DNA from: Candidatus Oxydemutator sp.
Lineage (GTDB): Bacteria > Pseudomonadota > Gammaproteobacteria > Poriferisulfidales > Oxydemutatoraceae
Length of the DNA stretch: 64,000 nucleotides
Assembly (NCBI GenBank): GCA_965203445.1
Contig: OZ241883.1
Location: forward strand, 608,001 to 672,000
Reading direction: 5' to 3'
Positions 9,816 to 44,000 of the stretch are shown here, one piece after another; within the stretch, counting starts at the first letter, position 1; the number at the start of each line of letters is the position of its first letter. The notes beneath the pieces are model-generated. The model did not search any database, was not told where the DNA came from, and saw only the letters and a list, made by a program, of their open reading frames with translations. The translations under genes and the position numbers were made by a program.

Positions 9816-9824
9816 ATTATATCA
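9816..9824 (-). promoter_or_regulatory. Putative extended -10 promoter (TGATATAAT) for gene A
   Basis: Perfect TGnTATAAT in an AT-rich island, identical in the second intergenic copy; no good -35 at 17 bp spacing. Confidence 0.55.
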
Positions 9825-28700: not shown

Positions 28701-31700
28701 CCGCCCCTTCGTCCACCACTTGATCGGAACCGGCATCCACCACCGGCGGCGTGTTCGTCTCCAACTCCACACGAACTGCCACCCGCGCGGTCGTCGCCAG
28801 ACCGCGCTCGTCCACAGCCCTCAATGCAAATCCCAGCACCGCCGCCTCCGCCAGACCCGACGGCGACGTGAACGTCGCCACCGACGACGTCGCACCCGAC
28901 AACACCACCGTCGGCTGACCGCTGGTCTGACTCCACTGATACCTCAACGTCTCGTTCTCCGGATCAAACGCCACCCCGCGCAGCGTAACCTCCTCGCCCT
29001 CGCCCACCACCTGATCCTGCCCCGCGCTCACCACCGGCGCGTCGTTCGGCCCCGGCAGCACCTCGACCGACACCTCGGCCGACGAACTCGCATTGCGCCC
29101 GTCCGTCACCGTCAACCGGAATACCAGCGTCGCCGTCTCCGCCAACTGCATCGGCGCCGTGAACGTCGCGGTTACCGACATCGCGTTCGTCAGCGTGACT
29201 CCCCTGCCGCTGACCTGACGCCAGTCATACCTCAACTCCTCTCTCTCCAGATCGCTGCTGCCAGTGCCGTCCAGCGTTACCAACTCGCCCTCGTCCACCA
29301 CCTGATCAAGTCCGGCGTCCGCCATCGGCACGTCGTTCTCGCCCGGCAACACCTCGACCGACACCTCGGCAGACGAACTCGCATTGCGCCCGTCCGTCAC
29401 CGTCAACCGGAACACCAGCGTCGCCGTCTCCGCCAACTGCATCGGCGCCGTGAACGTCGCCACCGACGACGTCGGATTGCCCAAAACCACGTCGCCACCG
29501 CTGATCTGTTCCCATCTGTACGACAATACGCCGCCCTCGTTATCCGTCGCACTGCCGCGCAACGTGACCTCCGCCCCTTCGTCCACCACTTGATCCGAAC
29601 CGGCATCCACCATCGGCGGCGTGTTCGTCCCCAACTCCACCCGAACCGCCACACGCGCGGTCGTCGCCAGACCGCGCTCGTCCGTCGCCCTCAACGCAAA
29701 TATCAGCACCGCCGCCTCCGCCAGACCCGACGGCGACGTGAACGTCGCCACCGACGACGTCGCACCCGACAACACCACCGTCGGCTGACCGCTGGTCTGA
29801 CTCCACTGATACCCCAACGTCTCGTTCTCCGGATCGAACGCCACGCCGCGCAGCACCACTTCCTCGCCCTCGCCCACTATCTGCTCCCGCCCCGCGCTCA
29901 CCACCGGCGCGTCGTTCGGCCCCGGCAACACCTCGACCGACACCTCGGCCGACGAACTCGCATTGCGCCCGTCCGTCACCGTCAGACGGAACACCAGCGT
30001 CGCCGTCTCCGCCAACTGCATCGGCGCCGTGAACGTCGCGGTTACCGACTGCGCGTTCGTCAGCGTGACCCCTCTGCCGCTGACCTGGCGCCAGTCATAC
30101 CTCAACTCTTCTCTCTCCAGATCGCTGCTGCCAGTGCCGTCCAGCGTTACCAACTCGCCCTCGTCCACCACCTGATCAAGTCCGGCGTCCGCCGTCGGCG
30201 CGTCGTTCTCGCCCGGCAACACCTCGACCGACACCTCGGCAGACGAACTCGCATCGCGCCCATCCGTCACCGTCAGACGGAACACCAGCGTCGCCGTCTC
30301 CGCCAACTGCTCCGGCGCCGTGAACGTCGCCACCGACGACGTCGGATTGCCCAAAACCACGTCGCCACCGCTGATCTGTTCCCATCTGTACGACAATACG
30401 CCGCCCTCGTTATCCGTCGCACTGCCGCGCAACGTGACCTCCGCCCCTTCGTCCACCACTTGATCCGAACCGGCATCCACCATCGGCGGCGTGTTCGTCC
30501 CCAACTCCACCCGAACCGCCACACGCGCGGTCGTCGCCAGACCGCGCTCGTCCGTCGCCCTCAACGCAAATATCAGCACCGCCGCCTCCGCCAGACCCGA
30601 CGGCGACGTGAACGTCGCCACCGACGACGTCGCACCCGACAACACCACCGTCGGCTGACCGCTGGTCTGACTCCACTGATACCCCAACGTCTCGTTCTCC
30701 GGATCGAACGCCACCCCGCGCAGCACCACTTCCTCGCCTTCGCCCACTATCTGGTTCCGCCCCGCGCTCACCACCGGCGCGTCGTTCGGCCCCGGCAACA
30801 CCTCGACCGACACCTCGGCCGACGAACTCGCATTGCGCCCGTCCGCCACCGTCAACCGGAACACCAGCGTCGCCGTCTCCGCCAACTGCTCCGGCGCCGT
30901 GAACGTCGCGGTTACCGACTGCGCGTTCGTCAGCGTGACTCCCCTGCCGCTGACCTGACGCCAGTCATATCCCAACTCCTCTCTCTCCAGATCGCTGCTG
31001 CCAGTGCCGTCCAGCGTTACCAACTCGCCCTCGTCCACCACCTGATCAAGTCCGGCGTCCGCCGTCGGCGCGTCGTTCTCGCCCGGCAACACCTCGACCG
31101 ACACCTCGGCCGACGAACTCGCATCGCGCCCATCCGTCACCGTCAGACGGAACACCAGCGTCGCCGTCTCCGCCAACTGCATCGGCGCCGTGAACGTCGC
31201 GGTTACCGACATCGCGTTCGTCAGCGTGACTCCCCTGCCGCTGACCTGACGCCAGTCATACCCCAACTCTTCTCTCTCCAGATCGCTGCTGCCGGTGCCG
31301 TCCAGCGTTACCATCTCGCCCTCGTCCACCACCTGATCAGCGCCCGCGTCCGCCGTCGGCGCGTCGTTCTCGCCCGGCAACACCTCGACCGACACCTCGG
31401 CAGACGAACTCGCATTGCGCCGGTCCGTCGCCGTCAGACGGAACACCAGCGTCGCCGTCTCCGCCAACTGCATCGGCGCCGTGAACGTCGCCACCGACGA
31501 CGTCGGATTACCCAAACCCACGTCAATACCGCCCGTTTGTTCCCACCTATACAACAGACGGCCGCCCTCGGTGTCCGTCGCACTGCCGCGCAACGTGACC
31601 TCGGCGCCTTCGTCCACCACTTGATCCGAACCGGCATCCACCATCGGCGGCGTGTTGACCCCCAACTCCACATAGACCACCAAATCATCGGTCGTCGCCG

Positions 31701-34700
31701 CATCGCGCTCGTCCGTAACACGCAACGCAAACGCTATCTCCGTCGCCGAACTCAAACCCGTCGGTATCACAAAGCTCGTAATCCTCGACGACGCATCGCT
31801 CAACGCAACTCCCAGCACCTCCGCACCGCTGGTCTGACTCCACCGATACCTCAACTCCTCGCCCTCAGGATCATAGGCGCTGCCGCGCAATACCACCACG
31901 TCGCCCTCACCCGCAAGCAGATCATCGCCCGCGTCCACCACCGGCGCGTCGTTCGTGCCCGCGCGCACCGTGACCACCACCGTGTTCGTCGTCTGACCAG
32001 CATACTGCGCCTCCACGGGCGACGACAAACCGCGCGTGTCCGTCGCCACCAACACGAACGTCAGGGTCTCGCTGCTCGCCAACTGCACCGGCGCCACAAA
32101 CGTCGTGCTGCGCGCTGCGGCGTCGTGCAACGACACCTGACTCCCGCTGATCTGACGCCAGCCATACACCAGCATCTCGTTCTCCGGATCGCTGCTGCCT
32201 GCGCCGTCCAGCGTCACCACCGCGCCCTCGTCCACCATCTGATCGGCGCCCGCGTTCGCCGTCGGCGCGTCGTTCTCGCCCGGGCGCACCTCGACCACCA
32301 CCGTGTCCGTGCCCACCGCGTCGCGCTCGTCCGTTACCGTCAACTCGAACACCAGCGTCGCCGTCTCCGCCAACTGCATCGGCGCCGTGAACGTCGCGGT
32401 GGCCGTGGCGGTGGTCATGGCGCCTACCGTCTCTCCCGTCAGCGTCACTCGACCGCCGCCGATCTGACGCCAGCCATACGTCAGAACCTCTCTCTCCGGA
32501 TCACTGCTGCCGTCGCCGTCCAGCGTTACCACATCGCCCTCGTCCACCACCTGATCATCGCCCGCGTCCGCCAACGGCGCGTCGTTCTCGCCCGCGCGCA
32601 CCGTGATCACCACCGTGTTCGTCGTCTGACCGCTCAACTGACGATCCCTCGGCGACGACAACCCGCGCGTGTCCGTCGCCACCAGCACGAACGTCAGGGT
32701 CTCGCTGCTCACCAACTGCACCGGCGCCACAAACGTCGTGCTGCGCGCCCCGGCGTCGTGCAACGACACCTGACTGCCGCTGATCTGACGCCAGCCATAC
32801 ACCAGCATCTCGTCCTCCGGATCGCTGCCCGCGCCGGCCAGCGTCACCACGTCGCCCTCGTCCACCACCTGATCATCGCCCGCGTCCGCCGTCGGTGCGT
32901 CGTTCTCGCCCGGAACCACCTCGACCACCACCGTGGCCGTGCCCGTCGCGTCGCGCGCGTCCGTTACCGTCAACTCGAACACCAGCGTCGCCGTCGCCGC
33001 CAACTGCTCCGGCGCCGTGAACGTCGCGGTTACCGACATCGCGTTCGTCAGCGTGACTCCCCTGCCGCCGACCTGACGCCAGCCATACGTCAACTCCTCT
33101 CTCTCCGGATCCCTGCTGGCTACGCCGTCCAGCGTCACCATCTCGCCCTCGTCCACCACCTGATTGGCGCCCGCGTCCGCCACCGGCGCATCGTTCGCGC
33201 CCGGACGCACCGTGATCACCACCGTGTTCGTCGTCCGATCGCTCAACTGCCGCTCCGCAGGCGACGACAGTCCGCGCGTGTCCGTCGCCACCAACACGAA
33301 CGTCAGGGTCTCGCTGCTCGCCAACTGCACCGGCGCCACAAACGTCGTGCTGCGCGCTGCGGCGTCGTGCAACGACACCTGACTGCCGCTGATCTGACGC
33401 CAGCCATACACCAGCATCTCGTCCTCCGGATCGCTGCCATCGCCGGCCAGCGTCACCACGTCGCCCTCGTCCGCCATCTGGTCGGCGCCCGCGTCCGCCG
33501 TCGGCGCGTCGTTCGGCCCCGCTCGCACCGTGATCACCACCGTGTTCGTCGTCTGACCGCTCAACTGCCGCTCCCTCGGCGACGACAGTCCCCGCGTGTC
33601 CGTCGCCACCAGCACGAACGTCAGGGTCTCGTTGCTCACCAACTGCTCCGGCGCCACAAACGTCGTGCTGCGCGCCCCGGCGTCGTGCAACGACACCTGA
33701 CTTCCGCTGATCTGACGCCAGCCATACACCAGCATCTCGTTCTCCGGATCGCTGCCATCGCCGGCCAGCGTTACCACGTCGCCCTCGTCCACCATCTGGT
33801 CGGCGCCCGCGTCCGCCGTCGGCGCGTCGTTCTCGCCCGGTCGCACCGTGATCACTACCGTGTTCGTCGTCTGACCGCTCAACTGCCGTTCCGCAGGCGA
33901 CGACAGTCCCCGCGTGTCCGTCGCCACCAGCACGAACGTCAGGGTCTCGCTGCTCGCCAACTGCACTGGCGCCACAAACGTCGTGCGACGCGCTGCGGCG
34001 TCGTGCAACGACACCTGACTTCCGCTGATCTGACGCCAGCCATACACCAGCATCTCGTTCTCCGGATCCCTGCCTACGCCGTCCAGCGTCACCACGTCGC
34101 CCTCGTCCACTACCTGGTCGGCGCCCGCATCCGCTACCGGCGCGTCGTTCTCGCCCGGCAACACCTCGACCGACACCTCGGCAGACGAACTCGCATCGCG
34201 CCTGTCCGTCACCGTCAGACGGAACACCAGCGTCGCCGTCTCCGCCAACTGCTCCGGCGCCGTGAACGTCGCCACCGACGACGTCGGATTGCCCAAACCC
34301 ACGTCGCCACCACCGATCTGTTCCCATCTGTACGACAATACGCCGCCCTCGGCGTCCGTCGCACTGCCGCGCAGCGTGACCTCCGCCCCTTCGTCCACCA
34401 CTTGATCGGAACCGGCATCCACCACCGGCGGCGTGTTCGTCTCCAACTCCACCCGAACCACCACCAGCGCGGTCGTCGCCAGACCGCGCTCGTCCGTCGC
34501 TCTCAACGCAAATCCCAGCACCGCCGCCTCCGCCAGACCCGACGGCGACGTGAACGTCGCCACCGACGACGTCGCACCGGACAACACCACCGTCGGCTGA
34601 CCGCTGGTCTGGCTCCATTGATACCTCAACATCTCGTTCTCCGGATCGAACGCCACCCCGCGCAGCACCACTTCCTCGCCTTCGCCCACTATCTGGTTCC

Positions 34701-36972
34701 GCCCCGCGCTCACCACCGGCGCGTCGTTCGGCCCCGGCAACACCTCGACCGACACCTCGGCCGACGAACTCGCATTGCGCCCGTCCGTCACCGTCAGACG
34801 GAACACCAGCGTCGCCGTCTCCGCCAACTGCATCGGCGCCGTGAACGTCGCGGTTACCGACTGCGCGTTCGTCAGCGTGACTCCCCTGCCGCTGACCTGA
34901 CGCCAGTCATATCCCAACTCCTCTCTCTCCGGATCGCTGCTGCCGGTGCCGTCCAGCGTTACCACCTCGCCCTCGCCCACCACCTGATCGGCGCCCGCGT
35001 CCGCCGTCGGCGCGTCGTTCTCGCCCGGCACCACCTCGACCACCACCGTGTCCGTGCCCACCGCGTCGCGCGCGTCCGTTACCGTCAACTCGAACACCAG
35101 CGTCGCCGTCTCCGCCAACTGCATCGGCGCCGTGAACGTCGCGGTGGTCCTGGAACCTATCGTCGCTCCCGTCAGCGTTACTCGACCGCCGCCGATCTGA
35201 CGCCAGCCATACCGCAACTCCTCTCTCTCCGGATCCCTGCTGCCGTCGCCGTCCAGCGTTACCATCTCGCCCTCGTCCACCACCTGATCATCGCCCGCGT
35301 CCGCTATCGGCGCGTCGTTCTCGCCCGCGCGCACCGTGATCACCACCGTGTTCGTCGTCTGACCGCTCAACTGCCGCTCTCTCGGCGACGACAAGCCGCG
35401 CGTGTCCGTCGCCACCAGCACGAACGTCAGGGTCTCGCTGCTCACCAACTGCACCGGCGCCAGGAACGTCGTGCTGCGCGCTGCGACGTCGTGCAACGAC
35501 ACCTGACTGCCGCTGATCTGACGCCAGCCATACACCAGCATCTCGTCCTCCGGATCGCTGCCATCGCCGGCCAGCGTCACCAACTGGCCCTCGTCCACCA
35601 CCTGGTCGGCGCCCGCGTCCGCTACCGGCGCGTCATTCTCGCCCGGGCGCACCGTGATCACCACCGTGTTCGTTGTCCGATCGCTCAACTGACGTTCCAC
35701 GGGCGACGACAGACCCCGCGTGTCCGTCGCCACCAGCACGAACGTCAGGGTCTCGCTGCTCGCCAACTGCACCGGCGCCAGGAACGTCGTGCTGCGCGCT
35801 GCGGCGTCGTGCAACGACACCTGACTGCCGCTGATCTGACGCCAGCCATACACCAGCATCTCGTCCTCCGGATCGCTGCCATCGCCGGCCAGCGTCACCA
35901 ACTGGCCCTCGTCCACCACCTGGTCGGCGCCCGCGTCCGCGACCGGCGCGCCGTTCTCGCCCGCGCGCACCGTGATCACCACCGTGTTCGTCGTCTGACC
36001 GCTCAACTGCCGCTCCCTCGGCGACGACAGTCCCCGCGTGTCCGTCGCCACCAGCACGAACGTCAGGGTCTCGCTGCTCGCCAACTGCACCGGCGCCAGG
36101 AACGTCGTGCTGCGCGCTGCGGCGTCGTGCAACGACACCTGACTGCCGCTGATCTGACGCCAGCCATACACCAGCATCTCGTTCTCCGGATCGCTGCCAT
36201 CGCCGGCCAGCGTCACCAACTGGCCCTCGTCCACCACCTGGTCGGCGCCCGCGTCCGCCGTCGGCGCGTCGTTCACGCCCGGTCGCACCGTGATCACCAC
36301 CGTGTTCGTTGTCCGATCGCTCAACTGACGTTCCACGGGCGACGACAGACCCCGCGTGTCCGTCGCCACCAGCACGAACGTCAGGGTCTCGCTGCTCGCC
36401 AACTGCACCGGCGCCAGGAACGTCGTGCTGCGCGCTGCGGCGTCGTGCAACGACACCTGACTGCCGCTGATCTGACGCCAGCCATACACCAGCATCTCGT
36501 TCTCCGGATCGCTGCCATCGCCGGCCAGCGTCACCAACTGGCCCTCGTCCACCACCTGGTCGGCGCCCGCGTCCGCCGTCGGCGCGTCGTTCTCGCCCGG
36601 TCGCACCGCGACCACTACCGTAGCCGTGCCCGTCGCGTCGCGCGCGTCCGTTACCGTCAACTCGAACACCAGCGTCGCCGTCGCCGCCAACTGCACCGGC
36701 GCCGTGAACGTCGCCACCGACGACGTCGGATTCCCCAAAACCACGTCGCCACCGCCGATCTGGCGCCAGCCGTACCTCAGCGGCTCGTTGTGCGAACTGC
36801 TGCTCGCGGCGCCGTCCAAAGTCACCACGGCGCCCTCGGACACGGTCTGATCAGGCCCGGCGTGCGCCGTCGGCGCGACCGCTTCCTGGGCGGACACGGT
36901 AGCGACAACGGACAACCCTAATAGCAATAACAGACTACGCACGCACCCCCCCCCCCCCCCCCCCCCCCCCAT
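9928..36972 (-). CDS. Giant secreted repeat protein B (~9,000 aa): signal peptide, 48 PKD/Ig-like repeats, 8 GLUG-like beta-helix/Calx-beta modules, terminal Calx-beta, C-terminal dockerin-like domain; putative adhesin
   Basis: Uninterrupted ORF 9928-37116. Start placed at ATG 36972 (alternative GTG 36942) because the signal peptide follows directly and the 48-codon upstream extension is broken in the paralogous copy before gene A. Confidence 0.93.
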   Translation of the reverse strand: MGGGGGGGGCVRSLLLLLGLSVVATVSAQEAVAPTAHAGPDQTVSEGAVVTLDGAASSSSHNEPLRYGWRQIGGGDVVLGNPTSSVATFTAPVQLAATATLVFELTVTDARDATGTATVVVAVRPGENDAPTADAGADQVVDEGQLVTLAGDGSDPENEMLVYGWRQISGSQVSLHDAAARSTTFLAPVQLASSETLTFVLVATDTRGLSSPVERQLSDRTTNTVVITVRPGVNDAPTADAGADQVVDEGQLVTLAGDGSDPENEMLVYGWRQISGSQVSLHDAAARSTTFLAPVQLASSETLTFVLVATDTRGLSSPRERQLSGQTTNTVVITVRAGENGAPVADAGADQVVDEGQLVTLAGDGSDPEDEMLVYGWRQISGSQVSLHDAAARSTTFLAPVQLASSETLTFVLVATDTRGLSSPVERQLSDRTTNTVVITVRPGENDAPVADAGADQVVDEGQLVTLAGDGSDPEDEMLVYGWRQISGSQVSLHDVAARSTTFLAPVQLVSSETLTFVLVATDTRGLSSPRERQLSGQTTNTVVITVRAGENDAPIADAGDDQVVDEGEMVTLDGDGSRDPEREELRYGWRQIGGGRVTLTGATIGSRTTATFTAPMQLAETATLVFELTVTDARDAVGTDTVVVEVVPGENDAPTADAGADQVVGEGEVVTLDGTGSSDPEREELGYDWRQVSGRGVTLTNAQSVTATFTAPMQLAETATLVFRLTVTDGRNASSSAEVSVEVLPGPNDAPVVSAGRNQIVGEGEEVVLRGVAFDPENEMLRYQWSQTSGQPTVVLSGATSSVATFTSPSGLAEAAVLGFALRATDERGLATTALVVVRVELETNTPPVVDAGSDQVVDEGAEVTLRGSATDAEGGVLSYRWEQIGGGDVGLGNPTSSVATFTAPEQLAETATLVFRLTVTDRRDASSSAEVSVEVLPGENDAPVADAGADQVVDEGDVVTLDGVGRDPENEMLVYGWRQISGSQVSLHDAAARRTTFVAPVQLASSETLTFVLVATDTRGLSSPAERQLSGQTTNTVVITVRPGENDAPTADAGADQMVDEGDVVTLAGDGSDPENEMLVYGWRQISGSQVSLHDAGARSTTFVAPEQLVSNETLTFVLVATDTRGLSSPRERQLSGQTTNTVVITVRAGPNDAPTADAGADQMADEGDVVTLAGDGSDPEDEMLVYGWRQISGSQVSLHDAAARSTTFVAPVQLASSETLTFVLVATDTRGLSSPAERQLSDRTTNTVVITVRPGANDAPVADAGANQVVDEGEMVTLDGVASRDPEREELTYGWRQVGGRGVTLTNAMSVTATFTAPEQLAATATLVFELTVTDARDATGTATVVVEVVPGENDAPTADAGDDQVVDEGDVVTLAGAGSDPEDEMLVYGWRQISGSQVSLHDAGARSTTFVAPVQLVSSETLTFVLVATDTRGLSSPRDRQLSGQTTNTVVITVRAGENDAPLADAGDDQVVDEGDVVTLDGDGSSDPEREVLTYGWRQIGGGRVTLTGETVGAMTTATATATFTAPMQLAETATLVFELTVTDERDAVGTDTVVVEVRPGENDAPTANAGADQMVDEGAVVTLDGAGSSDPENEMLVYGWRQISGSQVSLHDAAARSTTFVAPVQLASSETLTFVLVATDTRGLSSPVEAQYAGQTTNTVVVTVRAGTNDAPVVDAGDDLLAGEGDVVVLRGSAYDPEGEELRYRWSQTSGAEVLGVALSDASSRITSFVIPTGLSSATEIAFALRVTDERDAATTDDLVVYVELGVNTPPMVDAGSDQVVDEGAEVTLRGSATDTEGGRLLYRWEQTGGIDVGLGNPTSSVATFTAPMQLAETATLVFRLTATDRRNASSSAEVSVEVLPGENDAPTADAGADQVVDEGEMVTLDGTGSSDLEREELGYDWRQVSGRGVTLTNAMSVTATFTAPMQLAETATLVFRLTVTDGRDASSSAEVSVEVLPGENDAPTADAGLDQVVDEGELVTLDGTGSSDLEREELGYDWRQVSGRGVTLTNAQSVTATFTAPEQLAETATLVFRLTVADGRNASSSAEVSVEVLPGPNDAPVVSAGRNQIVGEGEEVVLRGVAFDPENETLGYQWSQTSGQPTVVLSGATSSVATFTSPSGLAEAAVLIFALRATDERGLATTARVAVRVELGTNTPPMVDAGSDQVVDEGAEVTLRGSATDNEGGVLSYRWEQISGGDVVLGNPTSSVATFTAPEQLAETATLVFRLTVTDGRDASSSAEVSVEVLPGENDAPTADAGLDQVVDEGELVTLDGTGSSDLEREELRYDWRQVSGRGVTLTNAQSVTATFTAPMQLAETATLVFRLTVTDGRNASSSAEVSVEVLPGPNDAPVVSAGREQIVGEGEEVVLRGVAFDPENETLGYQWSQTSGQPTVVLSGATSSVATFTSPSGLAEAAVLIFALRATDERGLATTARVAVRVELGTNTPPMVDAGSDQVVDEGAEVTLRGSATDNEGGVLSYRWEQISGGDVVLGNPTSSVATFTAPMQLAETATLVFRLTVTDGRNASSSAEVSVEVLPGENDVPMADAGLDQVVDEGELVTLDGTGSSDLEREELRYDWRQVSGRGVTLTNAMSVTATFTAPMQLAETATLVFRLTVTDGRNASSSAEVSVEVLPGPNDAPVVSAGQDQVVGEGEEVTLRGVAFDPENETLRYQWSQTSGQPTVVLSGATSSVATFTSPSGLAEAAVLGFALRAVDERGLATTARVAVRVELETNTPPVVDAGSDQVVDEGAEVTLRGSATDTEGGVLSYRWEQIGGGDVGLGNPTSSVATFTAPMQLAETATLVFRLTVTDGRNASSSAEVSVEVLPGENDAPTADAGADQVVDEGQLVTLAGDGSDPEDEMLVYGWRQISGSQVSLHDAAARSTTFLAPVQLASSETLTFVLVATDTRGLSSPRERQLSGQTTNTVVITVRPGANDAPVADAGADRMVDEGDVVTLDGVGSDPEDEMLVYGWRQISGSQVSLHDAAARSTTFVAPEQLVSDETLTFVLVATDTRGLSSPVERQLSGQTTNTVVITVRAGENDAPTADAGDDQVVYEGEMVTLDGDGSRDPEREELSYGWRQIGGGRVTLTGAMIGSRTTATFLAPMQLAETATLVFELTVTDARDAVGTDTVSVTVRAGENDAPVADAGADQVVDEGELVTLDGTGSSDLEREELRYDWRQVSGRGVTLTNAQSVTATFTAPMQLAETATLVFRLTVTDGRNASSSAEVSVEVLPGPNDAPVVSAGRNQVVGSSEAVVLRGVAFDLENETLRYQWSQTSGQPTVVLSGATSSVATFTSPSGLAEAAVLIFALRATDERGLATTALVVVRVELGTNTPPVVDAGSDQVVGEGAEVTLRGSATDNEGGVLSYRWEQIGGGDVVLGNPMVAVATFTAPMQLAETATLVFRLTVTDRRDASSSAEVSVEVLPGPNDAPVVSAGQDQVVGEGEEVTLRGVAFDPENETLRYQWSQTSGQPTVMLSGATSSVATFTSPLDAVVLGFALRVTDERGLAATARVVVRVELGANTPPMVDAGSDQVVDEGAEVTLRGSATDTEGGVLSYRWEQIGGGDVVLGNPTSSVATFTAPMQLAETATLVFRLTVTDGRDASSSAEVSVEVLPGPNDAPVADAGADQVVDEGQLVTLAGDGSDPEDEMLVYGWRQISGSQVSLHDAAARSTTFLAPVQLASSETLTFVLVATDTRGLSSPVERQLSDRTTNTVVITVRAGENDAPIADAGDDQVVSEGEMVTLDGDGSRDPEREELSYGWRQIGGGRVTLTGATIGSRTTATFMAPMQLAETATLVFELTVTDARDATGTATVVVEVVPGENDAPTADAGDDQVVDEGDVVTLDGAGSDPEDEMLVYGWRQISGSQVSLYDAGARSTTFVAPVQLVSSETLTFVLVATDTRGLSSPAERQLSDQTTNTVVITVRPGANDAPTADAGFAQVVSEGAVVILDGDASNDPEKEALVYVWSQTRGVRVTLTNAMSVTASFTAPMQLVSDEELEFALRVTDTRGAVSTTATVVVTVRAGANDAPVADAGDDQVVDEGGLVTLDGDGSSDPEREDLTYGWRQIGGGRVTLTGATIGATTTTTTTVTFTAPMQLVETATLVFELTVADARGATDTDTVVVEVRAGANDAPVVDAGDNLLAGEGDVVVLRGSAYDPESEELRYRWSQTSGAEVLGVALSDASSRITSFVIPTGLSSATEIAFALRVTDERGAATTDDLVVYVELGVNTPPVVDAGSDQVVGEGAEVTLRGSATDTEGGRLSYRWEQIGGIDVGLGEPTTNRASFRAPMQLAETATLVFRLTVTDRRDASSSAEVSVEVLPGPNDAPTADAGDDQVVDEGQLVTLAGVGSDPEDEMLVYGWRQISGSQVSLHDAAARSTTFLAPVQLASSETLTFVLVATDTRGLSSPRERQLSGQTTNTVVITVRPGANDAPVADAGADQMVDEGEVVTLAGTGSDPEEEVLEYGWRQISGSQVSLRDAAARSTTFVAPEQLVSDETLTFVLVATDTRGLSSPRERQLSGQTTNTVVITVRAGPNDAPTADAGDDQVVYEGEMVTLDGDGSDPENEMLVYGWRQISGSQVSLHDAAARSTTFVAPEQLVSDETLTFVLVATDTRGLSSPRERQLSGQTTNTVVITVRAGANAAPVADAGADQMVDEGDVVTLAGVGRDPENEMLVYGWRQISGSQVSLHDAAARSTTFVAPEQLVSSETLTFVLVATDTRGLSSPVERQLSGQTTNTVVITVRAGANDAPMVDAGSDVIVREGDVVALRGVADDPEGEELTYRWRQLSGTVVEVTGATSETATFAVPRAAVAETLVFELTVADARGATGVDTVTVKVRDRVDYDFDDDNLIEVATTSQLAAIGHDLGGAGLAGVSSANEAAYRAYRAAFPLYDEMETCPGTCIGYELSADLDLSDIPNWEPIGGNVPLRDFPGDAYTAVFEGNGHVIKNLTMYHDVPPGNPAAVPTQIGLFGAVNGSGVIRNVGLRNVQVHGGYFVGALVGDNGDRGEVVASYVIGGSVSGVASVGGLVGSHYGGRLVASYAAVRVHGIESGVGGLTGDADGASVVSASYSVGLVEAESGTAFVGGLIGNRVAGSVVESSYFDVQRSLRASCCGRNPGDLNNVAPRTSYQLRTPTTAAGTIYEGWDKLNVDDVDQGGDVDYNDDSPWDFGSAFDYPVLVFGGATETRQARSRSQQEAQPQVSLAPTLIGSETVSEGGTASYVVRLPMVLPAGVRATWDWAVGGGEADAADFVNTTGTVVIRSGAVSASFSVVVRDDADTESFETMVVALSNARLTGAGVPARGVRLGVPAPVRTVIDPSDGVEKDYDVDGDTLIEVATTSQLAAIRHDLGGVGVTGVGDANNVAYRRAFPFFDEASCPGACTGYELSADLDLSDVADWTPLGGGGTPDAYTAVFEGNGHVISNLRMSGGGVYGTGLFGIVGADGRIRNVGLRNAQVDLGRSSTYTGALVGRNEGKVAASYVSGGRISGASGVGGLIGGHYGSLVASYADVEVHAEASNAGGLVGEAGAASVVSASYSVGIPTGGGLVGGLIGNRVAGAAVESSYFDKERSLRSSCCGTNAHGLDDVVAKTSSDLLFPLTATGTIYAGWDKLNVDDVDQGSDGDLNDDAPWDFGTKFDYPVLVFGGATDTEVARRTSQRETQREISLTPTFAGSETVSEGGTASYVVRFPGALPAGVTASWNWAVGGNQVNADDFDGRTSGSVVIASGASSASFSVRVRDDVITELSEVMVVALSDAMLTGAPARVSLGVPVSVRTTIEARGEIDYDLDDDTLIEVATTSQLSAIRYDLGGAGLAGVSSANEAAYRAYLAAFPLYDEMETCPGTCTGYELSADLDLSSVNPAPGPGWTPLGGGVSSFGELLGGIYTAVFEGNGHVISNLRMVRDGHWFSMGLFGTVGRDGRIRNVGLRNAQVSLGSGGRFAGALVGINLGKVAASYVIGGRISGVFEVGGLIGGHFGSLVASYADVEVHTNASGAGGLIGEVGAASVVSASYSVGRLTGGTVGGLIGIAHRDVVVESSYFDGERSGLSRCCGVNPPSPDDTSKTSSQLRVPTTAAGTLYAGWDQLNVDDVARAGGGDLNDDAPWDFGTVFDYPVLVFGGATETRAMRRTSQQQAQPQVILAATLTGSVTVSEGEAASYVVSLPEVLPTGASVRWDWVVGGDEVSIADFVGTTGSVVIPSGAVSASFSVAVRADAVTELSEVMVVTLSSAMPTGAPARARLGVPVSVMTTIEASDQMDYDLDNDTLIEVATTSQLAAIRHDLGGDGLAGVSSANEAAYRAYRAAFPHYNEMETCPGTCTGYELSADLDLSGIPDWTPLGGGVRLEDLPGDVYTAVFEGNGHVISNLRVVRNVHERWFHVGLFGNVGLGGRIRNVGLRNARMSLGRDSEGAGALVGTNQGKVAASYVSGGRISGGISVGGLIGINGGEVVASYADVEVHAGGANAGGLVGSDHSEGAVTASYSIGRPTGASANGLIGSRVTGSVVESSYFDKERSGQSRCCGRNSPSPDNTSKTSTELLFPTTVTDTIYAGWDKLNVDDVDQGRDGDLNDDAPWDFGSVFDYPVLVFGGATETEAMRRTSQQQARPEVILTPTLAGSATGPEGGIASYVVRFPAALPAGASARWSWAVGGGEVDADDFVGTTVGSVVIAAGAASASFVLRVRADGEIEMPEVMVVALSNARLAGAPQGVGLGVPLPVSTTIEFSDGIDYDEDDDTLIEVATTSQLAAIRYDLGGAGIAGVSKTNKSAYFAAFPLFGAPQTCPSTCTGYELSADLDLSSVNPAPGPGWTPIGGEVSRIRDLLGQERYTAVFEGNGHVISNLRMVRDRQSLSMGLFGAVGADGRIRNVGLRNARVSLSNDGRGIGALVGFNLGEVAASYVIGGRIGGPSVDSVGGLIGDHRGGRLVASYAAVDVHADVDVGGLVGQAGYGSVTSASYFVGTLTGRNAVGGLTGSRHIRAVMESSYFDGQRSGLSRCCGLHPLSPDDTSRPSHQLHVPTTAAGTLYAGWDRLNVDGVARADDGDLNDDAPWDFGGVFDYPVLVFGGATETRAMRRTSQQEAQRVILTPVLTGSETTSEGGTASYVVRLPLVLPAGVRASWDWSVGGDVDADDFVGTTGNVAIASGAVSASFSVTVLDDDAPEPSEVLVISLAGARLTGVPARVSLGVPVPVMTAIEASDQIDYDADDDNLIEVATTSQLAAIRHDLGGAGLAGVSSANEAAYRAYLAAFPRYDETRTCPGTCAGYELSADLDLSSVNPAPGPGWTPLGGGVPRAVPGDAYTAVFEGNGHVIRNLRVARDGEWQIGLFGRVGAGGVIRNVGLHNARVEMGGDSLFIGALVGDNEGEVLASYVIGGRVSGNAGVGGLIGGHYAGRLVASYADVEVRADGANVGGLIGEAGGASVVSASYSVGRVTGIYPIGGLIGNRVAGAVVESSYFDRERSRQSGCCGSRASHQLRAPTTAVGTLYAGWDKLHVDDVDQGDDGDYNDDAPWDFGTVFDYPVLVFGGATETMAMRRTSQQQAQPQVILAATLTGSVTVSEGEAASYVVSLPEVLPAGATVSWDWVVGGDEVSIADFVGTTGVVVIGSGAVSASFSVEVFDDAIPEFSEVMVVTLSSAMPTGAPARARLGVPVSVMTIIEASDEVDYDLDNDTLIEVATTSQLAAIRHDLGGAGLTGVSGDANRDEYLDAFPVFGQLQTCPTTCTGYELSADLDLSSIPNWEPIGGGITQAPWNYVPPERRYQAVFEGNGHVISNVTIRSANNGAARFDSVGFFGAVGVTGRIRNVGLNNVHTDVPGGSIGAGALAGYNAGKVAACYVVGDVRQVHGGWALGGLVGKLDGGVVIASYTDVPVNQRSPGESVGGLIGGVSKGGIVSASYAVSRLTGDGGSPSGFPSGGLVGDHSSGTIQVSYFDEGRSGQSDCCGSHVPATDDAPRTSAQLRAPTAAAGTIYEGWDRLNVDGLDQGRDGDYNDDAPWDFGGAFDYPVLVFGGATETQAARRTSQQQAQPEVDFAPTLTGSTVVSEGGTASYVVRLPGALPAGARASWSWAVGGGEVDADDFVGTTAGSVVIEAGASSASFLLIVRADGEPELSEVLVVTLTDARLTGVPADVSIGGPVSIRTTIELSDGTDYDDDNDTLIDVATTSQLAAIRYDLGGAGIAGVVGKANRLAYFAAFPFFDAKQTCPSTCTGYELSADLDLSSVNPAPGAGWTPLGGGGDSLLDNYYTAVFEGNGHVISNLRVVRGGRLSHAGLFGAVGAVGTVRNVGLRDAWISLGDHSTYIGALVGRNEGKVVASYVSGGRISGVWAVGGLIGGNYGGLVASYAGVEVHAEGANAGGLVGEAGVASVVSASYSVGKPTGSGIVGGLIGNRMVGAVVESSYFDRERSVQSDCCGSNVLSPDNTSKTSNQLRVPTTAAGTIYEGWDKLNVDGLDQGRDGDYNDDAPWDFGGVFDYPVLVFGGATDTQAARRTSQQQTQPRVILAPTLAGSTVVVEGGTASYVVRLPEALPPGVSARWSWAVGGEVDADDFVGTTAGNVVIAAGAASASFVLRVRADGVIEPPEVLAVTLSSARLTGAPADVRLGVPSTVARTTIAVNDPITVAARSATVSENTTATFTITLRGGGDRAVVVEYEITAASGGLTHEDLASVTVTGRAADARSVGSLPFTGSVTLNETGTATIAVRVASDQLENEGRERFRLRLTGCPNCVTHVAELGTPSFADVGIFSERVVVVDARVVLQGALLAETRRMRSDLANLLPRRQPYGALPWGHPVTTTVPHAGAAVGLAGVTSTIVDWVLVELRTGQSTTAAASSRPSTGGRAAGLLLSDGRIAGINEAASSVADALSLDGVRFELKPPEGEHLYVLIHHRNHLPVMSAVPAAATTGADCEADYCVDFRVGQSHGDGQIAVGAGRYAMVAGDVDRNGVIDERDEVLIRVYNLTSLGVADYRAAAAAGHYAVDADVDFDGEVLSADRYFVIENKGRRRTFSVH
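11110..22415 (-). repeat. Array of 8 beta-helix/Calx-beta modules (~1.4 kb) in gene B
   Basis: Caps at ~22407, 20958, 19581, 18165, 16758, 15345, 13959 and 12507. Motifs CPxTCxGYEL, YTAVFEGNGHVI, GLFG, NVGL, GxLVG, SSYFD..CCG, APWDFG..FDYPVL, then a Calx-beta-like SEG...DF....G...I..G..SASF.V.V.DD...E..E. Confidence 0.88.
22420..36885 (-). repeat. Intragenic tandem array of 48 PKD/Ig-like domains (~95-106 aa) in gene B
   Basis: 48 P-x-x-(D/S/H/N)AG-x-x-Q...EG..V.L.G...DP....Y.W.Q units counted. 318-bp period at 36223/36541; 870-bp three-domain period at 29306/30176. Confidence 0.88.
36889..36942 (-). other. Sec-type signal peptide of gene B
   Basis: VRSLLLLLGLSVVATVSA|QEA. Confidence 0.75.
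36946..36970 (-). repeat. Poly-G tract (G25) at the start of gene B; candidate phase-variation switch, ON as assembled
   Basis: 25 consecutive C on the + strand. ATG 36972-36970 reads M-G8-CVRSLLLLLG in frame. Confidence 0.9.
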
Positions 36973-37172
36973 CACAAACCGCCGAGCGTTCACGCTTTCG
37001 CGCACTTTCTCGTGACCGGCGGCAACGCGTCGGGAGCAGTCGCTTGCGACAAGATAGATGCAGGTGCGCCCGATACGGACGGCACGCGCCCTAAGGCCAG
37101 GGAAAGGAAATACCATGCTAGTAGGGAACTGTAGGCTATACGCCCTGATCCATGAGAATGGGCGATTGAGGA

Positions 37173-37181
37173 ATTATATCA
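37173..37181 (-). promoter_or_regulatory. Putative extended -10 promoter (TGATATAAT) for gene B
   Basis: Same motif at the homologous position, ~200 nt upstream of ATG 36972. Confidence 0.55.
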
Positions 37182-37282: not shown

Positions 37283-37284
37283 GC

Positions 37285-38077
37285 CTAATGCACCGAAAAC
37301 ATCCTGCGCCGACCCTCGTTCTCTATCACGAAATACCGATCGGCGGACAACACCTCGCCGTCAAAGTCCACGTCCGCGTCCACCGCGTAATGGCCGGCCG
37401 CGGCCGCGGCGCGGTAGTCGCCCGCACCCAACGACGACAAGTTGTACACGCGTATCAATACTTCGTCCCGTTCATCAATCACGCCGTTTCGATCCACGTC
37501 GCCCGCGACCATCGCATACACGCCCGCCCCCACTGCAATCTGCCCGCCCCCGTGCGACTGCCCGACGCGGAAGTCCACGCAGTAGTCCGCCTCGCAACCG
37601 GCGCCCGTGGTCGCGGCCGCCGGTATCGCCGACATCACCGACAGATGGTTGCGGTGGTGGATCAGCACGTACAGGTCCTCCCCTTCGGACAGCTCCGCCT
37701 CAAAGCGCACGCCGCCCAATGACAGCGCGTCCGCCACCGACGACGCCGCCTCGTTTATCCCCACGATGCGACCGTCGCTCAACAGCAGACCCGCGGCGCG
37801 ACCGCCCGTCGGCGGCCGCGACGACGCGGCCGCGGTCGTGTTCTGGCCGGTGCGCAACTCCACCAGCACCCAGTCCACTATCGTCGAGGTGACACTGGCC
37901 AGGCCGACCGCCGCGCCCGCGTGCGGCACCGTCGTCGTCACCGGGTGCTCCCACGGCAACGCGCCGTACGGCTGGCGCCTCGGCAACAGACCCGCCAAGT
38001 CGCTCCTCATCCGACCGGCCCCGGCAAGCAACGCCCCCTGCAAAACCACTCGCGCGTCCACCACTACGACCCTCTCG
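37285..38077 (-). other. Conserved C-terminal domain of C with dockerin/EF-hand-like Ca-binding loops
   Basis: Same motifs as in B; ends RRRMFSVH. Confidence 0.65.
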
Positions 38078-41000
38078 CTGAAAATGCCAACGTCCGCAAA
38101 CGACGGCGTCCCCAGCTCCGCCAGATGGGTGACGCAATTCGGGCAGCCCGTCAGCCTCAAACGAAACCGCTCGCGGCCCTCATCCCCGATACCGTCGCTC
38201 GGCACGCCCACCTCTATCCTCGCCACACCCGCCTCATTCAGCACCACGCTCCCGGTAAACGGCAGCGAAACCACCGAGCGCACGCCGGCGGCGCCGCGCC
38301 CCGCTACGTGCACCGCGGCCAGGTCCTCGTGCGTCAAACCCTCGGACGCGGCGGCAATCTCATAGTCCACGACCACCGCACGATCACCGCCGCCACTCAA
38401 CGCGATCGTGAACGTCGCGGTAGTGCTTTCGCTCACCGTCGCGGACGTCGCCGCCACCGTCACCTGACTCAGCTCATTGGCCTCTATCGTCGTGCGCGCA
38501 ACGGTGCTCGGCACGCCTAAAACCACGCGCGCGGGCGCCCCCGTGAGCCTCGCGCCCGTCAACGTCACCGCCAGCACCTCGGACAGCTCGGGCTCGCCGT
38601 CCACGCGCACCCTCAACGAAAACGACGCACTGACGGCGCCCGATTCGATGACCACGCTGCTCGCGGTCACGCCGATAAAGTCGTCGGCGTCGGCTTCGCC
38701 GCCGCCCACCGACCAATCCCAACGCACGCTCACCCCCGGCGGCAAGGCCTGCGGCAAGCGCACCACGTAACTCGCGGTGCCGCCTTCCGACACCGTCTCG
38801 CTGCCGGCGAGCGTCGGTGCAAGACTCACCGCCGGCTGCGCCTCCCGCTGCGACGTGCGACGCGCCTGCATCGTTTCGGTAGAACCGCCGAACACCAGCA
38901 CCGGGTAATCGAACACGCTGCCGAAGTCCCACGGCGCGTCGTCGTTCAAGTCGCCGTCGCGTCCCCGATCCAAGCCGTCCACGTTCAACTGATCCCAACC
39001 CGCGTAGATCGTGCCCGCGGTCGTCGTCGGGACGCGCAACTCGCTCGACGTCTTCGAGGTGTCGTCCGAACTCGGCGCATTCGTTCCGCAGCAACGGCTC
39101 AAGCCGCTGCGCTCGGCGTCAAAATAACTCGACTCCACCACGGCGCCGACTACCCGGTTGCCTATCAGACCGCCGGCCGTGGCCGTCCCCGTCGTTACCC
39201 CGACCGAGTAGCTGGCGCTGACCACCGACGCGCCGCCGGCTTCGCCCACCAGACCGCCCGCGTTGCTTTCCTCTGCATGCACTCCCACGTCGGCGTAACT
39301 CGCCACCAGCCCGCCGTAATGACCCCCTATCAAACCGCCCACCCCCGAGGCGCCGGATATGCGACCGCCGATCACGTAACTCGCCGCCACCTTGCCCTCG
39401 TTGCGGCCCACCAGCGCACCGGTATAGGTGCTGCTGCGGCCCAAGTCCACCCGCGCGTTGCGCAAGCCCACGTTGCGGATCACGCCGGCGGCGCCGACGG
39501 CGCCGAACAAACCCACGTGATACCGCTGCCCGTTTCCGGTCATCGTCAGATTGTTGATGACGCGGCCGTTGCCTTCAAAAACAGCGGTGTAAGAATCCAC
39601 CGGATATTCCACCCCCGAGCCCCCGCCTATCGGCGTCCAGTCCGCTACGTCGGACAAGTCCAGGTCGCCCGACAACTCGTAGCCGGTGCACGTGCTCGGA
39701 CAGGTCCGTTTCTCGTCGAAAAAGGGAAACGCCGCATAATAAGCGGATTTGTTAGTCTTGCCCACGCCCGCCAACCCGACACCGCCCAGGTCGTAGCGGA
39801 TCGCTGCCAACTGCGACGTCGTCTCCACGTCTATCAAGGTATCGCCGTCGCCGTTGTAGATTGTTTCGTCGCTCGCCTCGATGATGGTCCTGACGGAAAC
39901 CGGCATGCCCAGATCCACGCCGCGCGCGGGCGCCCCCGTGAGCCTCGCGCCCGTCAACGTCACCACCAGCACTTCGGAAAACTCGGGCTCGTCGTCGTCG
40001 CGCACCCCCACCGAAAACGACGCGCTGACGGCGCCCGAGACGATGGCCACGCTGCTCGCAGTCACGCCGACAAAGTCGTCGGCGTCGACTTCGCCGCCGC
40101 CCACCGACCAATCCCAACGCACGCTCACCCCCGGCGGCAAGGCCTGCGGCAAGCGCACCACGTAACTCGCGGTGCCGCCTTCCGACACCGTCTCGCTGCC
40201 GGTGAGCGTCGGTGCAAGACTCACCGCCGGCTGCGCCTCCCGCTGCGACGTGCGACGCGCCGCCTCCGTGTCGGTAGCGCCGCCGAACACCAGCACCGGG
40301 TAATCAAACACGCTGCCGAAGTCCCACGGACTGTCGTCGTTCAAATCGCCGTCGCCTCTCCGATCCAAGCCGTCCACGTCCAACTGGTCCCAACCGGCGT
40401 AGATCGTGCCCGCGGCCGTCGTCGGGACACGCAACTCGCTCGACGTCTTCGAGGTGTCGTCCGAACTCGGCGCATTCGTTCCGCAGCAACGGCTCAGACC
40501 GCTGCGCTCGGCGTCAAAATAACTCGACTCCACCACGGCGCTGACTACCCGGTTGCCTATCAGACCGCCGACCGTGGCCGTCCCCGTCGTTACCCCGACC
40601 GAGTAGCTGGCGCTGACCACCGACGCGCCGCCGGCTTCGCCCACCAGACCGCCCGCGTTGCTTTCCTCCGCATGCACCTCCACGTCTGCGTAACTCGCGA
40701 CCAAACTGCCGTAATGACCCCCTATCAAACCGCCCACCCCGGATGCGCCGGATATGCGACCGCCACTGACGTAACTCGCCGCCACCTTGCCCTCGTTGCG
40801 ACCCACCAGCGCACCGGTATAGGTGCTGCTGCGACCCAAGACCACCCGCGCGTTGCGCAAACCCACGTTGCGGATCGCGCCGTCGGCGCCGACGGCGCCG
40901 AACAAACCCACGTGATACCGCTGCCCGTTTCCGGTCATCGTCAGATTGCTGATGACGCGGCCGTTGCCTTCAAAAACGGCGGTGTAATAATCTACTGGAG

Positions 41001-44000
41001 CTTCCACCCCCGAACCCCCGCCTAGCGGCGTCCAATCCGCTACGTCGGACAAGTCCAGATCGTTCGACAACTCGTAGCCGGTGCACGTGCTGGGACAGGT
41101 CCGTTTCTCGTCGAAAAAGGGAAACGCCGCATAATAAGCGGCCCTGTTCGCACTGCTCACGCCCGCCGGCCCGACACCGCCCAGGTCATAGCGTATCGCC
41201 GCCAACTGCGACGTCGTCTCCACGTCTATCAAGGTATCGCCGTCGCCGTTGTAGATTGTTTCGTCGCTCGCCTCGATGATGGTCCTGACGGAAACCGGCA
41301 TGCCCAGATCCACGCCGCGCGCGGGCGCCCCCGTGAGCCTCGCGCCCGTCAACGTCACCACCAGCACCTCGGACAACTCGGGCGCGTCGTCATCAAACAC
41401 CGTCACCGAAAACGATGCGCTGACGGCGCCCGATTCGATGGCCACGCTGCTCGCGGTCACGCCGACAAAGTCGTCGGCGTCGACTTCGCCGCCGCCCACC
41501 GACCAATCCCAACGCACGCGCACCCCCGGCGGCAAGGCCTGCGGCAAGCGCACCACGTAACTCGCGGTGCCGCCTTCCGACACCGTCTCGCTGCCGGCGA
41601 GCGTCGGGGCAAGACTCACCGCCGGCTGCGCCTCCCGCTGCAACGTGCGACGCGCCTGCATCGTTTCGGTAGAACCGCCGAACACCAGCACCGGATACTC
41701 GAACACGCTGCCGAAGTCCCACGGACTGTCGTCGTTCAAATCGCCGTCGCGTCCCCGAGCCACGCCGTCCACGTTCAACTGGTCCCAACCCTCATAGATG
41801 GTTCCCGCGGTCGTCGTCGGGACGCGCAACTCGCTCGATGTCTTCGAGGTGTCGTCCGAACTCGGCGCATTCGTTCCGCAGCAACGGCTCAGACCGCTGC
41901 GCTCGGCGTCAAAATAACTCGACTCCACCACGGCGCCGACTACCCGGTTGCCTATCAGACCGCCGACCGTGGCCGTCCCCGTCGTTACCCCGACCGAGTA
42001 GCTGGCGCTGACCACCGACGCGCCGCCGGCTTCGCCCACCAGACCGCCCGCGTCGCTTTCCTCTGCATGCACCTCCACGTCGGCGTAACTCGCCACCAGA
42101 CTGCCGTAATGACCCCCTATCAAACCACCCACTCTCGAGGCGCCGGATACGCGACCGCCACTCACGTAACTCGCCGCCACCTTGCCCTCGTTGCGGCCCA
42201 CCAGCGCACCGGTATAGGTGCTGCTGTGGCCCAAGACCACCCGCGCGTTGCGCAAGCCCACGTTGCGGATGGTGCCGACGGCGCCGACGGCGCCGAACAA
42301 ACCCACGTGATACCGCTGCCCGTCCCCGGTCACCCGCAGATTGCTGATGACGCGGCCGTTGCCTTCAAAAACGGCGGTGTAATAATCCACCGGATATTCC
42401 ACCCCCGAGCCCCCGCCTATCGGCGTCCAGTCCGCTACGTCGGACAAGTCCAGGTCGTTCGACAACTCGTAGCCGGTGCACGTGCTCGGACAGGTCCGTT
42501 TCTCGTCGAAAAAGGGAAACGCCGCATAATAAGCGGCCTTGTTCGCACTGCTCACGCCCGCCGGCCCGACACCGCCCAGGTCGTAGCGTATCGCCGCCAA
42601 CTGCGACGTCGTCTCCACGTCTATCAAGGTGTCGCCGTCGCCGTTGTAGATTGTTTCGTCGCTCGCCTCGATGATGGTCCTGACGGAAACCGGCATGCCC
42701 AGATCCACGCCGCGCGCGGGCGCCCCCGTGAGCCTCGCGCCCGTCAACGTCACCACCAGCACCTCGGAAAACTCGGGCGCGTCGTCGTCGCGCACCCCCA
42801 CCGAAAACGACGCGCTGACGGCGCCCGAGACGATGACCACGTTGCCTGCGGTCGTGCCGACAAAGTCAGCGGCGTCGACTTCACCGCCGCCCACCGACCA
42901 ATCCCAACTCGCACGCACCCCCGGCGGCAAGGCCTGCGGCAAGCGCACCACGTAACTCGCGGTGCCGCCTTCCGACACCGTCTCGCTGCCGGCGAGCGTC
43001 GGGGCAAGACTCACCGCCGGCTGCGCCTCCCGCTGCGACGTGCGACGCGCCTGCACCGTTTCGGTGGAGCCGCCGAACACCAGCACCGGATACTCGAACA
43101 CGCTGCCGAAGTCCCACGGCGCGTCGTCGTTCAAGTTGCCGTCGCGTCCCCGATCCAAGCCGTCCACGTCCAACTGATCCCAACCGGCGTAGATCGTGCC
43201 CGCGGTCGTCGTCGGAACGCGCAACTCGCTCGATGTCTTCGAGGTGTCGTCCGAACTCGGCGCATTCGTTCCGCAGCAACGGCTCAAGCCGCTGCGCTCG
43301 GCGTCAAAATAACTCGACTCCACCACGGCGCCGACTACCCGGTTGCCTATCAGACCGCCGACCGTGGCCGTCCCCGTCGTTACCCCGACCGAGTAGCTGG
43401 CGCTGACCACCGACGCGCCACCGGCTTCGCCCACCAGACCGCCCGCGTTGCTTCCCTCCGCATGCACCTCCACGTCGGCGTAACTCGCAACCAACCGGCC
43501 GTAATGACCCCCTATCAAACCGCCCACCCCCGAGGCGCCGGATATGCGACCGCCGATCACGTAACTCGCCGCCACCTTGCCCTCGTTGCGGCCCACCAGC
43601 GCACCGGTATAGGTGCTGCTGCGACCCAAGACCACCCGCGCGTTGCGCAAGCCCACGTTGCGGATCGCGCCGCCGGCGCCGACGGCGCCGAACAAACCCA
43701 CGTGATACCGCTGCCCGTTTCCGGTCATCGTCAGATTGCTGATGACGCGGCCGTTGCCTTCAAAAACGGCGGTGTAATAATCCACCGGATATTCCACCCC
43801 CGAGCCCCCGCCTATCGGCGTCCAGTCCGCTATGCTGTCCAAGTCCAGGTCGGCAGACAACTCGTAGCCGGTGCACGTGCTCGGACAGGTCCGTTTCTCG
43901 TCGAAAAAGGGAAACGCCGCATAATAAGCGGCCCTGTTCGCACTGCTCACGCCCGCCAACCCGACACCGCCCAGGTCGTAGCGGATCGCCGCCAACTGCG

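Follow-up and report, generated by a model that had tools for sequence, protein, structure and literature searches.

A long poly-G run where translation of giant, adhesin-like tandem genes begins in Candidatus Oxydemutator is probably a slipped-strand contingency run

Slipped-strand switches are textbook features of a few mucosal pathogens: the pilC tract of Neisseria lies within signal-peptide codons, and the lic loci of Haemophilus influenzae place several start codons in different frames 5′ of a tetranucleotide repeat. We describe here a run of 25 G (G25) at the start of gene B, the fifth of six tandem giant paralogs in Candidatus Oxydemutator sp. (assembly GCA_965203445.1). The stretch analysed, hereafter the window, comprises 64,000 nucleotides (nt; genome 608001-672000 of a single contig of 2,378,814 base pairs, 63.6% G+C), and positions are those of the window unless marked as genome. 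We take the feature to be, most likely, a contingency run of the slipped-strand kind, located where translation of these adhesin-like giant genes begins. The mechanism itself is already known; the unusual points are the run lengths, the intact mismatch repair, the graded series of paralogs and the size of the genes.

The closest described systems are shorter. Intragenic poly-G tracts of Neisseria (pilC, pglA and lgtA) span G9-20 or G9-21 with a mode of 9-10, in the part of PMC5953494 that treats them. There, a G-run within surface or glycosylation genes sets ON or OFF by frame (PMC5953494). The present locus may share this frame dependence, and its genome likewise combines several independent loci with mismatch repair; the locus is unlike them in its runs of 25-28 nt (48-70 in relatives), which are fused to the start codon and followed by a second in-frame start, and in genes of 9,000-16,000 codons. 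For Moraxella catarrhalis, the passages of PMC7302503 on tracts describe a G(n) tract (G8-12) 5′ of uspA1's open reading frame (ORF) with graded mRNA levels, a tract at the 5′ end of the mid/hag ORF with on/off switching, and an extra base flanking the tract that shifts, between strains, which lengths give high expression. Here too an adhesin gene has a G-run at its 5′ end, and the extra flanking base of Moraxella parallels a 4-nt duplication in gene B that changes its frame rule; the uspA1 effect was measured on mRNA, whereas the present locus is known from sequence alone. Campylobacter jejuni tracts, as presented in the relevant section of PMC8355987, are mainly G9-G10 in a species without functional mismatch repair. 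The likeness lies in the large number of G/C runs in a genome, within genes as well as between them, next to surface-structure genes (PMC8355987), and the difference in MutS and MutL, intact here, and in runs that are far longer. Homopolymers are generally enriched at gene 5′ ends, according to the portion of PMC2831843 that deals with their placement.

The run, its reading frame and the paralog series

On the + strand the run consists of 25 C, with ..tacgcacgca on its low side and atcac.. on its high side. The minus strand, which carries gene B, reads ATG, (GGG)8, TGC GTG CGT from 36972 to 36937 and continues with AGT CTG, the G of the ATG doubling as the first G of G25. Translated from this fused ATG, gene B begins MGGGGGGGGCVRSLLLLLGLSVVATVSAQE.. 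and is in frame with the ORF at 9928..37116 (9062 amino acids). The first-pass annotation had proposed exactly this in-frame reading at G25, together with a TGCG duplication beside the run relative to neighbouring gene A and frame rules from the fused ATG that differ between the two genes (3n+1 G for B, 3n+2 for A). Sequence and translation confirm the first proposal and the A/B alignment the second, while the third follows directly from the sequence. Both readings out of frame end at stops within 11-24 codons.

Chance does not account for runs of this kind. The window holds 34 overlapping G10 windows, all inside G25 and the G27 of gene A, compared with a mean of 0.90 and a largest value of 5 in 100 shuffles; the two runs are real, non-random and far above chance expectation. 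Both exceed the length at which G/C homopolymers become slippage-prone (about 7-9 or more), although the lengths 25 and 27, and hence the present ON/OFF calls, rest on one assembly.

Downstream of the run, the gene B leader (..VRS LLLLLGLSVVA TVSA QE) is likely a Sec-type signal peptide, judged by eye from what looks like a charged n-region, hydrophobic core and AXA-type cleavage site. In the body, K319L-like PKD repeats number at least 48; it also has a weak match to Calx-beta, and its carboxy terminus resembles a dockerin but falls below the Pfam cut-off. Searched in halves, gene B matches PF22352 (K319L-like PKD; cut-off 27) with 2026.7 bits over 45 stretches and 129.3 bits over 3 stretches; the second half holds those 3 PKD stretches plus the weak Calx-beta match, and the PKD match within the first 1000 residues alone has E = 2.4e-130. 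The Dockerin_1 match, located at residues 927-987 within the last 999, reaches 18.8 bits (E = 0.0018) where the cut-off is 22.9. An extension of gene B by 48 codons to an ATG at 37116 (36973-37116) was considered and set aside as probably not coding, gene A having a 1-nt indel and stops in all frames there, so that the extension is not conserved.

Gene B belongs to six tandem minus-strand giant genes, in the order F-E-D-C-B-A, over about 158 kb (genome 569,225-727,874), with stop-to-stop lengths of 4,326 (F), 9,139 (E), 3,521 (D), 10,540 (C), 9,081 (B) and 16,130 (A) codons. A common carboxy-terminal motif and a TAG end F, E, D, C and B, the five with another giant gene after them. Consecutive F, E, D and C are separated by gaps of at most 73 nt; A and B have upstream regions of their own, of about 312 nt each and 94-96% identical to each other. 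At one homologous site F has G4 (within GAGGGGC before its ATG), C and D have G8, B has G25 and A has G27. Since the flanks are otherwise 94-96% identical, the run is the most changeable part of the leader, and by comparison of these sequences change in its length is seen only over evolutionary time, through the series G8, G8, G25, G27. As a separate observation, the giant ORFs F, E, D and C (genome 645288-727874, including window 37285-64000) share one reading frame with single TAG codons and short open stretches between them, and the D|C and E|D junctions are near-identical, an arrangement that may stem from chance, from recent duplication or from stop-codon readthrough.

Alignment of A with B (96% identity over 437 columns) sets the additional TGCG of B against the run, and just 5′ of the ATG shows a 1-nt deletion and 2 substitutions relative to A; the small indels of B, duplication and upstream deletion, cluster beside the run. 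Genes C and D share the leader GTG ATG GGG GGG GTG CGT, that is G8, in frame from the ATG under the 3n+2 rule of A. The first-pass annotation had raised the question of a tract in gene C, and C does have a run at the same site, but one of G8 only, not a long one. The fused ATG is in frame in three of the four run-bearing leaders (B, C and D), amounting to about two independent cases because C and D are near-identical copies.

Gene A is the exception. From the ATG at 9615 it reads MGGGGGGGGGA and then stops, yet the body is open for 16,130 codons despite this frame mismatch, so that the gene is not decayed; the open body appears to fit a reversible state rather than decay. At G27, gene A represents the one length class that joins neither upstream start to the body, its upstream GTG needing 3n+1 and its ATG 3n+2. 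Candidate starts in two frames 5′ of the run and one after it make the A leader resemble lic of H. influenzae, and with such an arrangement different lengths could give different expression levels; unlike the tetranucleotide repeats of lic, the element here is a G homopolymer and its starts are candidates.

These features point to an explanation that we judge to stand at about even chances, in which G25 would be a contingency homopolymer, prone to slippage and set exactly where translation of gene B begins, forming a frame switch with a dimmer superimposed. Replication slippage would change the length of the run, and only at one length in three would ribosomes that begin at the fused ATG read on into the signal peptide and the 27-kb body. 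At their assembled lengths B (G25 with the TGCG duplication) would be joined to its start, A (G27) would not, and C and D (G8) would be joined. The gene B product would be a surface protein exported through Sec, some 9,000 residues long and composed mostly of PKD-like repeats. A and B could be set independently, each having its own upstream region with a perfect extended -10 motif.

Table 1. Coordinates of the leaders, runs and genes in the window.
Feature	Position	Strand	Basis or remark
5′ part of gene A	1..9615	-	body frame open 16,130 codons, genome C1:569225-617614
GTG (last G of run + TG) then CGT, in-frame start of gene A body	9585..9587	-	picked by automatic ORF calling
G27 homopolymer, gene A	9587..9613	-	C27 on +
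ATG fused to gene A run	9613..9615	-	out of frame at G27; mini-ORF ends at TAG 11 codons on
Upstream GTG-AAC-GCT-CGG-CGG, gene A	9635..9637	-	needs 3n+1 run; out of frame at G27
TGATATAAT upstream of A, same place as in B	9816..9824	-	consensus match only
Gene B, about 9,014 codons from ATG, stop TAG	9928..36972	-	
Predicted Sec-type leader MGGGGGGGGCVRS-LLLLLGLSVVA-TVSA, likely cleavage before QE	36889..36972	-	judged by eye
TGCG TGCG, 4-nt duplication relative to A, C and D; frame rule 3n+2 to 3n+1	36938..36945	-	alignment
GTG then CGT (Met-Arg), gene B candidate start 2	36940..36942	-	in frame at any run length; position homologous to paralog F ATG
G25 homopolymer, gene B	36946..36970	-	sequence (C25 on +)
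ATG fused to run, gene B candidate start 1	36970..36972	-	sequence, translation; in frame at G25
GTG-AAC-GCT-CGG-CGG, gene B candidate start 3	36991..36993	-	seven codons 5′ of ATG; position homologous to paralog E ATG start
TGATATAAT, perfect extended -10 consensus, putative promoter of B	37173..37181	-	consensus match only; about 200 nt 5′ of ATG
3′ part of gene C	37285..64000	-	start outside window at about genome 676,8xx, ATG-G8 in frame

Candidate starts, transcription and the search for length variants

The run lies between start and body for the fused ATG and for the upstream GTG of B (candidate start 3), and not for the GTG-CGT 3′ of it (candidate start 2). Candidate start 3 matches the start of E, ATG-AAT-GCT-CGG-CGG; it is in frame in B solely through the 1-nt deletion, and in A would need 3n+1. 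The E start itself (genome 714878, ATG AAT GCT CGG CGG TTA..) equals the A-D leader minus the piece containing the run (8 nt, run, 12 nt), and the F start equals the portion of that leader 3′ of the run, so that the A-D leader looks like a composite of the E and F start regions.

The evidence that weighs against a frame switch concerns initiation, RNA structure, mismatch repair and the lack of length variants in searches. Its first part belongs to an alternative that we hold to be possible but distinctly less probable, in which the run is untranslated, an overgrown Shine-Dalgarno element, and the true start is GTG-CGT; changes in its length would then leave the frame untouched and at most adjust initiation, whether by ribosome binding, by RNA structure or by an upstream mini-ORF that overlaps the gene, in a graded manner like that of Moraxella uspA1. 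Directly 3′ of the run, GTG-CGT is in frame whatever the length in genes A, B, C and D, in which the run is followed by GTG-CGT-AGT-CTG-TTA. Paralog F opens with ATG-CGT-AGC-CTG-TTA immediately after GAGGGGC; in the alignment the GTG of A-D stands at the start position of F and the run at its purine-rich stretch. MRSLLLLLGLS.. would be a complete signal-peptide amino terminus, as in secreted proteins from elsewhere in the genome that start MR.., automatic ORF calling starts A at the GTG, and the body of A is intact though out of frame with the ATG.

Ribosome binding points the same way. The 16S tail has the canonical sequence, and the word GGAG occurs more often upstream of genes than at random positions (66/642 compared with 24/642). 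Pairing with the anti-Shine-Dalgarno tail reaches -10.7 to -13.9 kcal/mol for the long poly-G and -9.8 for the G7 of C and D, whereas the 20 nt before the ATG pair at -6.2 to -7.1 kcal/mol, a value attained by 21% of random 20-mers; GGCGG, which alone resembles a Shine-Dalgarno word in front of the ATG, shows no enrichment upstream of genes (22/642, random 21/642). Against an untranslated run stand the leaders of C and D, in which seven G's abut the GTG with no spacer, a poor Shine-Dalgarno geometry, and the ATG is in frame; the missing spacer favours the ATG in these two genes. ATG is also the commoner start codon, and ribosomes loading on the run would meet it too. A further argument comes from the GT4-like gene at genome 1,918,062, where a GTG directly precedes the run; from the run to the conserved amino-terminal strand no in-frame ATG or GTG occurs, only a TTG inside the strand.

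For the frame switch with its dimmer, leaky 'off' states are to be expected, because GTG-CGT keeps its frame at every length and the run offers a strong ribosome-binding match of its own; a clean ON/OFF switch is unproven because this competing start does not depend on run length. The suggestion of the first-pass annotation that the run is a pure switch accordingly survives in part: the run does lie at the very start of a Sec-type leader, but the GTG start after it, which the first-pass annotation had itself named as a threat to the switch, is in frame at every length in A-D.

Folding of both leaders without quadruplexes is no better than that of shuffles (z = +0.99 and +1.97). Once quadruplexes are allowed, a 5-6-layer RNA G-quadruplex covers the run and both start codons, at -101 and -120 kcal/mol compared with -46 and -50 without, values that extrapolate the model; such modelling suggests that a quadruplex over very long runs could depress initiation in any frame. 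The leader gave a single Rfam match, far under threshold (asX2, 17.8 compared with 70 bits).

Neisseria opc offers a different precedent, a poly-C tract that sits in the promoter (in the section of PMC3960869 on this gene), and a run acting in this way would be a spacer that alters transcription initiation. We regard this as very improbable here. Four other runs of the genome, 26-44 nt 5′ of likely starts, could lie in a promoter or early 5′ untranslated region. For A and B, however, the sole strong promoter-like motif, TGATATAAT (41 occurrences in the genome, 9.7 expected), is about 200 nt upstream, and this extended -10, a putative promoter, would place the run within the transcript rather than in a promoter spacer. 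The run also abuts signal-peptide codons, and a consensus scan of 36850-37400 for sigma-70 promoters and terminators found no -35/-10 pair around the run and no terminator.

MutS and MutL are intact in the genome, and the searches yielded no orthologous leader in another genome or metagenome. Contigs from two sequencing runs of one sample match the gene B flanks at 100% identity, ending at 36932 and resuming at 36981; 36933-36980 was skipped as a repeat in this comparison, so no contig bridges G25. The exact leader pattern had 0 matches in genome contigs and 0 in metagenome contigs, and the leader DNA matched six of 40 relatives, only via the G-run itself. With the first 181 residues of gene B as query, the best identity among the 80 loci kept was 51%, all of them generic PKD-repeat proteins. 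Among the 120 of 244 matches listed in a search for homologous proteins of 246-2000 residues (proteins above 2000 residues lying outside it), identities were at most 57% bar one, of 76% over 54% coverage, whose source is absent. The carboxy-terminal 300 residues of B found only matches of 34-40% in 5 relatives, to frames of about 300 residues. Two sponge-metagenome sequencing runs match only the repeated PKD region (7/30 and 9/30 bins), mostly at less than 99% likeness, and give no evidence of habitat or organism.

Long G/C runs across the genome and in relatives

Thirteen G/C runs in the genome measure 13-28 nt, while lengths of 11-12 nt are absent, giving a bimodal distribution of lengths (at most 10 nt, and 13-28 nt). 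In our own reading of the loci, five of the 13 follow the order start codon, run, gene body: those of A and B, ATG-G20 at 359,212, an ATG four codons before C26 at 1,824,504, and GTG-C28 at 1,918,062. A further four sit 26-44 nt 5′ of likely starts, in three cases ahead of a signal-peptide protein, a single run is deep inside a gene, in frame, and three adjoin the degenerate end repeat of two arrays of clustered regularly interspaced short palindromic repeats (CRISPR; 116 and 39 exact repeats, each a lower bound).

Runs of at least 16 nt recur in 18 of 40 relatives (9/18, 9/11, 0/10 and 0/1 in families f1, f2, f3 and f4) compared with 22 of 149 further genomes drawn from the class, some of the runs standing at contig ends, where they may be artefacts. 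The comparison counts in favour of the contingency reading. The same distribution also lends itself to an explanation that we consider unlikely: long runs would have no regulatory role and arise as side effects of a bias, particular to this lineage, towards expanding G/C runs wherever length is free to vary, and the lengths 25 and 27 may be off by assembly errors of one or two bases. Consistent with a by-product, long runs are also found at CRISPR array ends and in intergenic DNA, those of relatives reach 70 nt and often stand at contig ends in fragmented assemblies, and the two lengths come from a single assembly. Placement argues the other way, with 9 of 13 runs at or near starts and 1 of 13 deep in a gene though long ORFs cover roughly 85% of the genome, as do the bimodal lengths, the G8, G8, G25 and G27 at the same site of four paralogs, and the 48-kb ORF of A, which has been kept open.

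In the sampled loci of relatives, runs measure 20-70 nt; these loci were chosen by likeness to the query ..GAT-G(n), and their flanks are biased accordingly. Runs of 29, 48 and 70 nt occur at L003 (G022:C1:1682196-1685223), L005 (in G003) and L010 (in G010): at L003 two open frames on one strand, of 199 and 523 residues, have the G29 between them, and at L005 the run borders a gap of N. Relative G016 has several runs at contig ends.

The other loci of the genome carry several features of their own. Next to the CRISPR array of at least 116 exact 36-nt repeats stand G25 and C28, 41 nt apart (genome 1381142-1381235), and the ORF of a Schlafen/AlbA_2 ATPase ends within that G25; G18 (genome 1459668-1459685) stands beside the second array, of at least 39 exact 35-nt repeats. 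These runs are probably at the trailer end rather than the leader end, because the repeat nearest the run is degenerate in both arrays. The C28 at genome 1918062-1918089 directly follows a GTG and precedes the conserved amino-terminal strand of a weak GT4-type glycosyltransferase match, out of frame; judged by this layout it is a second candidate translational switch in which the start codon is fused to the run. No run of at least 8 nt was found within the loci of three GT4-like paralogs of relative G003 (0/3), a result uninformative for A and B.

G23 at genome 81736-81758 lies about 147 codons into a 428-codon frame without Pfam match, in frame, where it encodes Gly8; relative G001 has 7 matches to this protein, one cluster with C27 at a different position, which is likewise uninformative for A and B. 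In two tandem secreted-protein paralogs, of 1,401 and 1,272 codons, runs measuring 13 and 19 nt occupy the same place, 30-32 nt before the likely starts, with identical flanks on one side (genome 2324554-2324566 and 2328499-2328517). More than 20 open frames exceed 2,000 codons in the 2.38 Mb, the largest having 17,496 and 16,130, and a long 5′-end run is present in only three of these giant frames (A, B and 780955-793290).

Pfam searches of ten run-neighbouring genes returned a 2OG-Fe(II) oxygenase, weak GT4 and HAD matches, the Schlafen/AlbA_2 ATPase and an aspartate-semialdehyde dehydrogenase, and left five without match. By their predicted products, the secreted proteins, weak GT4-type match and 2OG-Fe(II) oxygenase near runs are of the usual contingency-locus classes.

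A broader and, in our view, doubtful proposal would extend contingency to the whole genome. Related small-genome Gammaproteobacteria would use very long G/C runs in this way (18-28 nt here, up to 48-70 in relatives) despite intact mismatch repair. The run would have grown from a ribosome-binding G-stretch (G4, G8, G25, G27) and now stand between start codons in three frames, and its length class would set the output: full, reduced via the GTG, or none. A and B, varying independently, would produce a combinatorial surface coat, and the CRISPR-side runs would extend such control to defence.

Significance of a possibly switchable giant surface coat

Slipped-strand switches are hardly documented in uncultured, possibly host-associated environmental bacteria, and we found no literature report that links poly-G phase variation to sponge or other symbionts. 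For annotation the locus carries a warning, since gene A would be called a pseudogene or given a wrong start, and run lengths from single assemblies are not to be taken as fixed ON/OFF states. If the contingency reading is true, six giant surface proteins encoded in tandem would take up about 158 kb of this genome, and two or more of them could be varied stochastically, which would bear on the dealings of the organism with hosts, phages or grazers.

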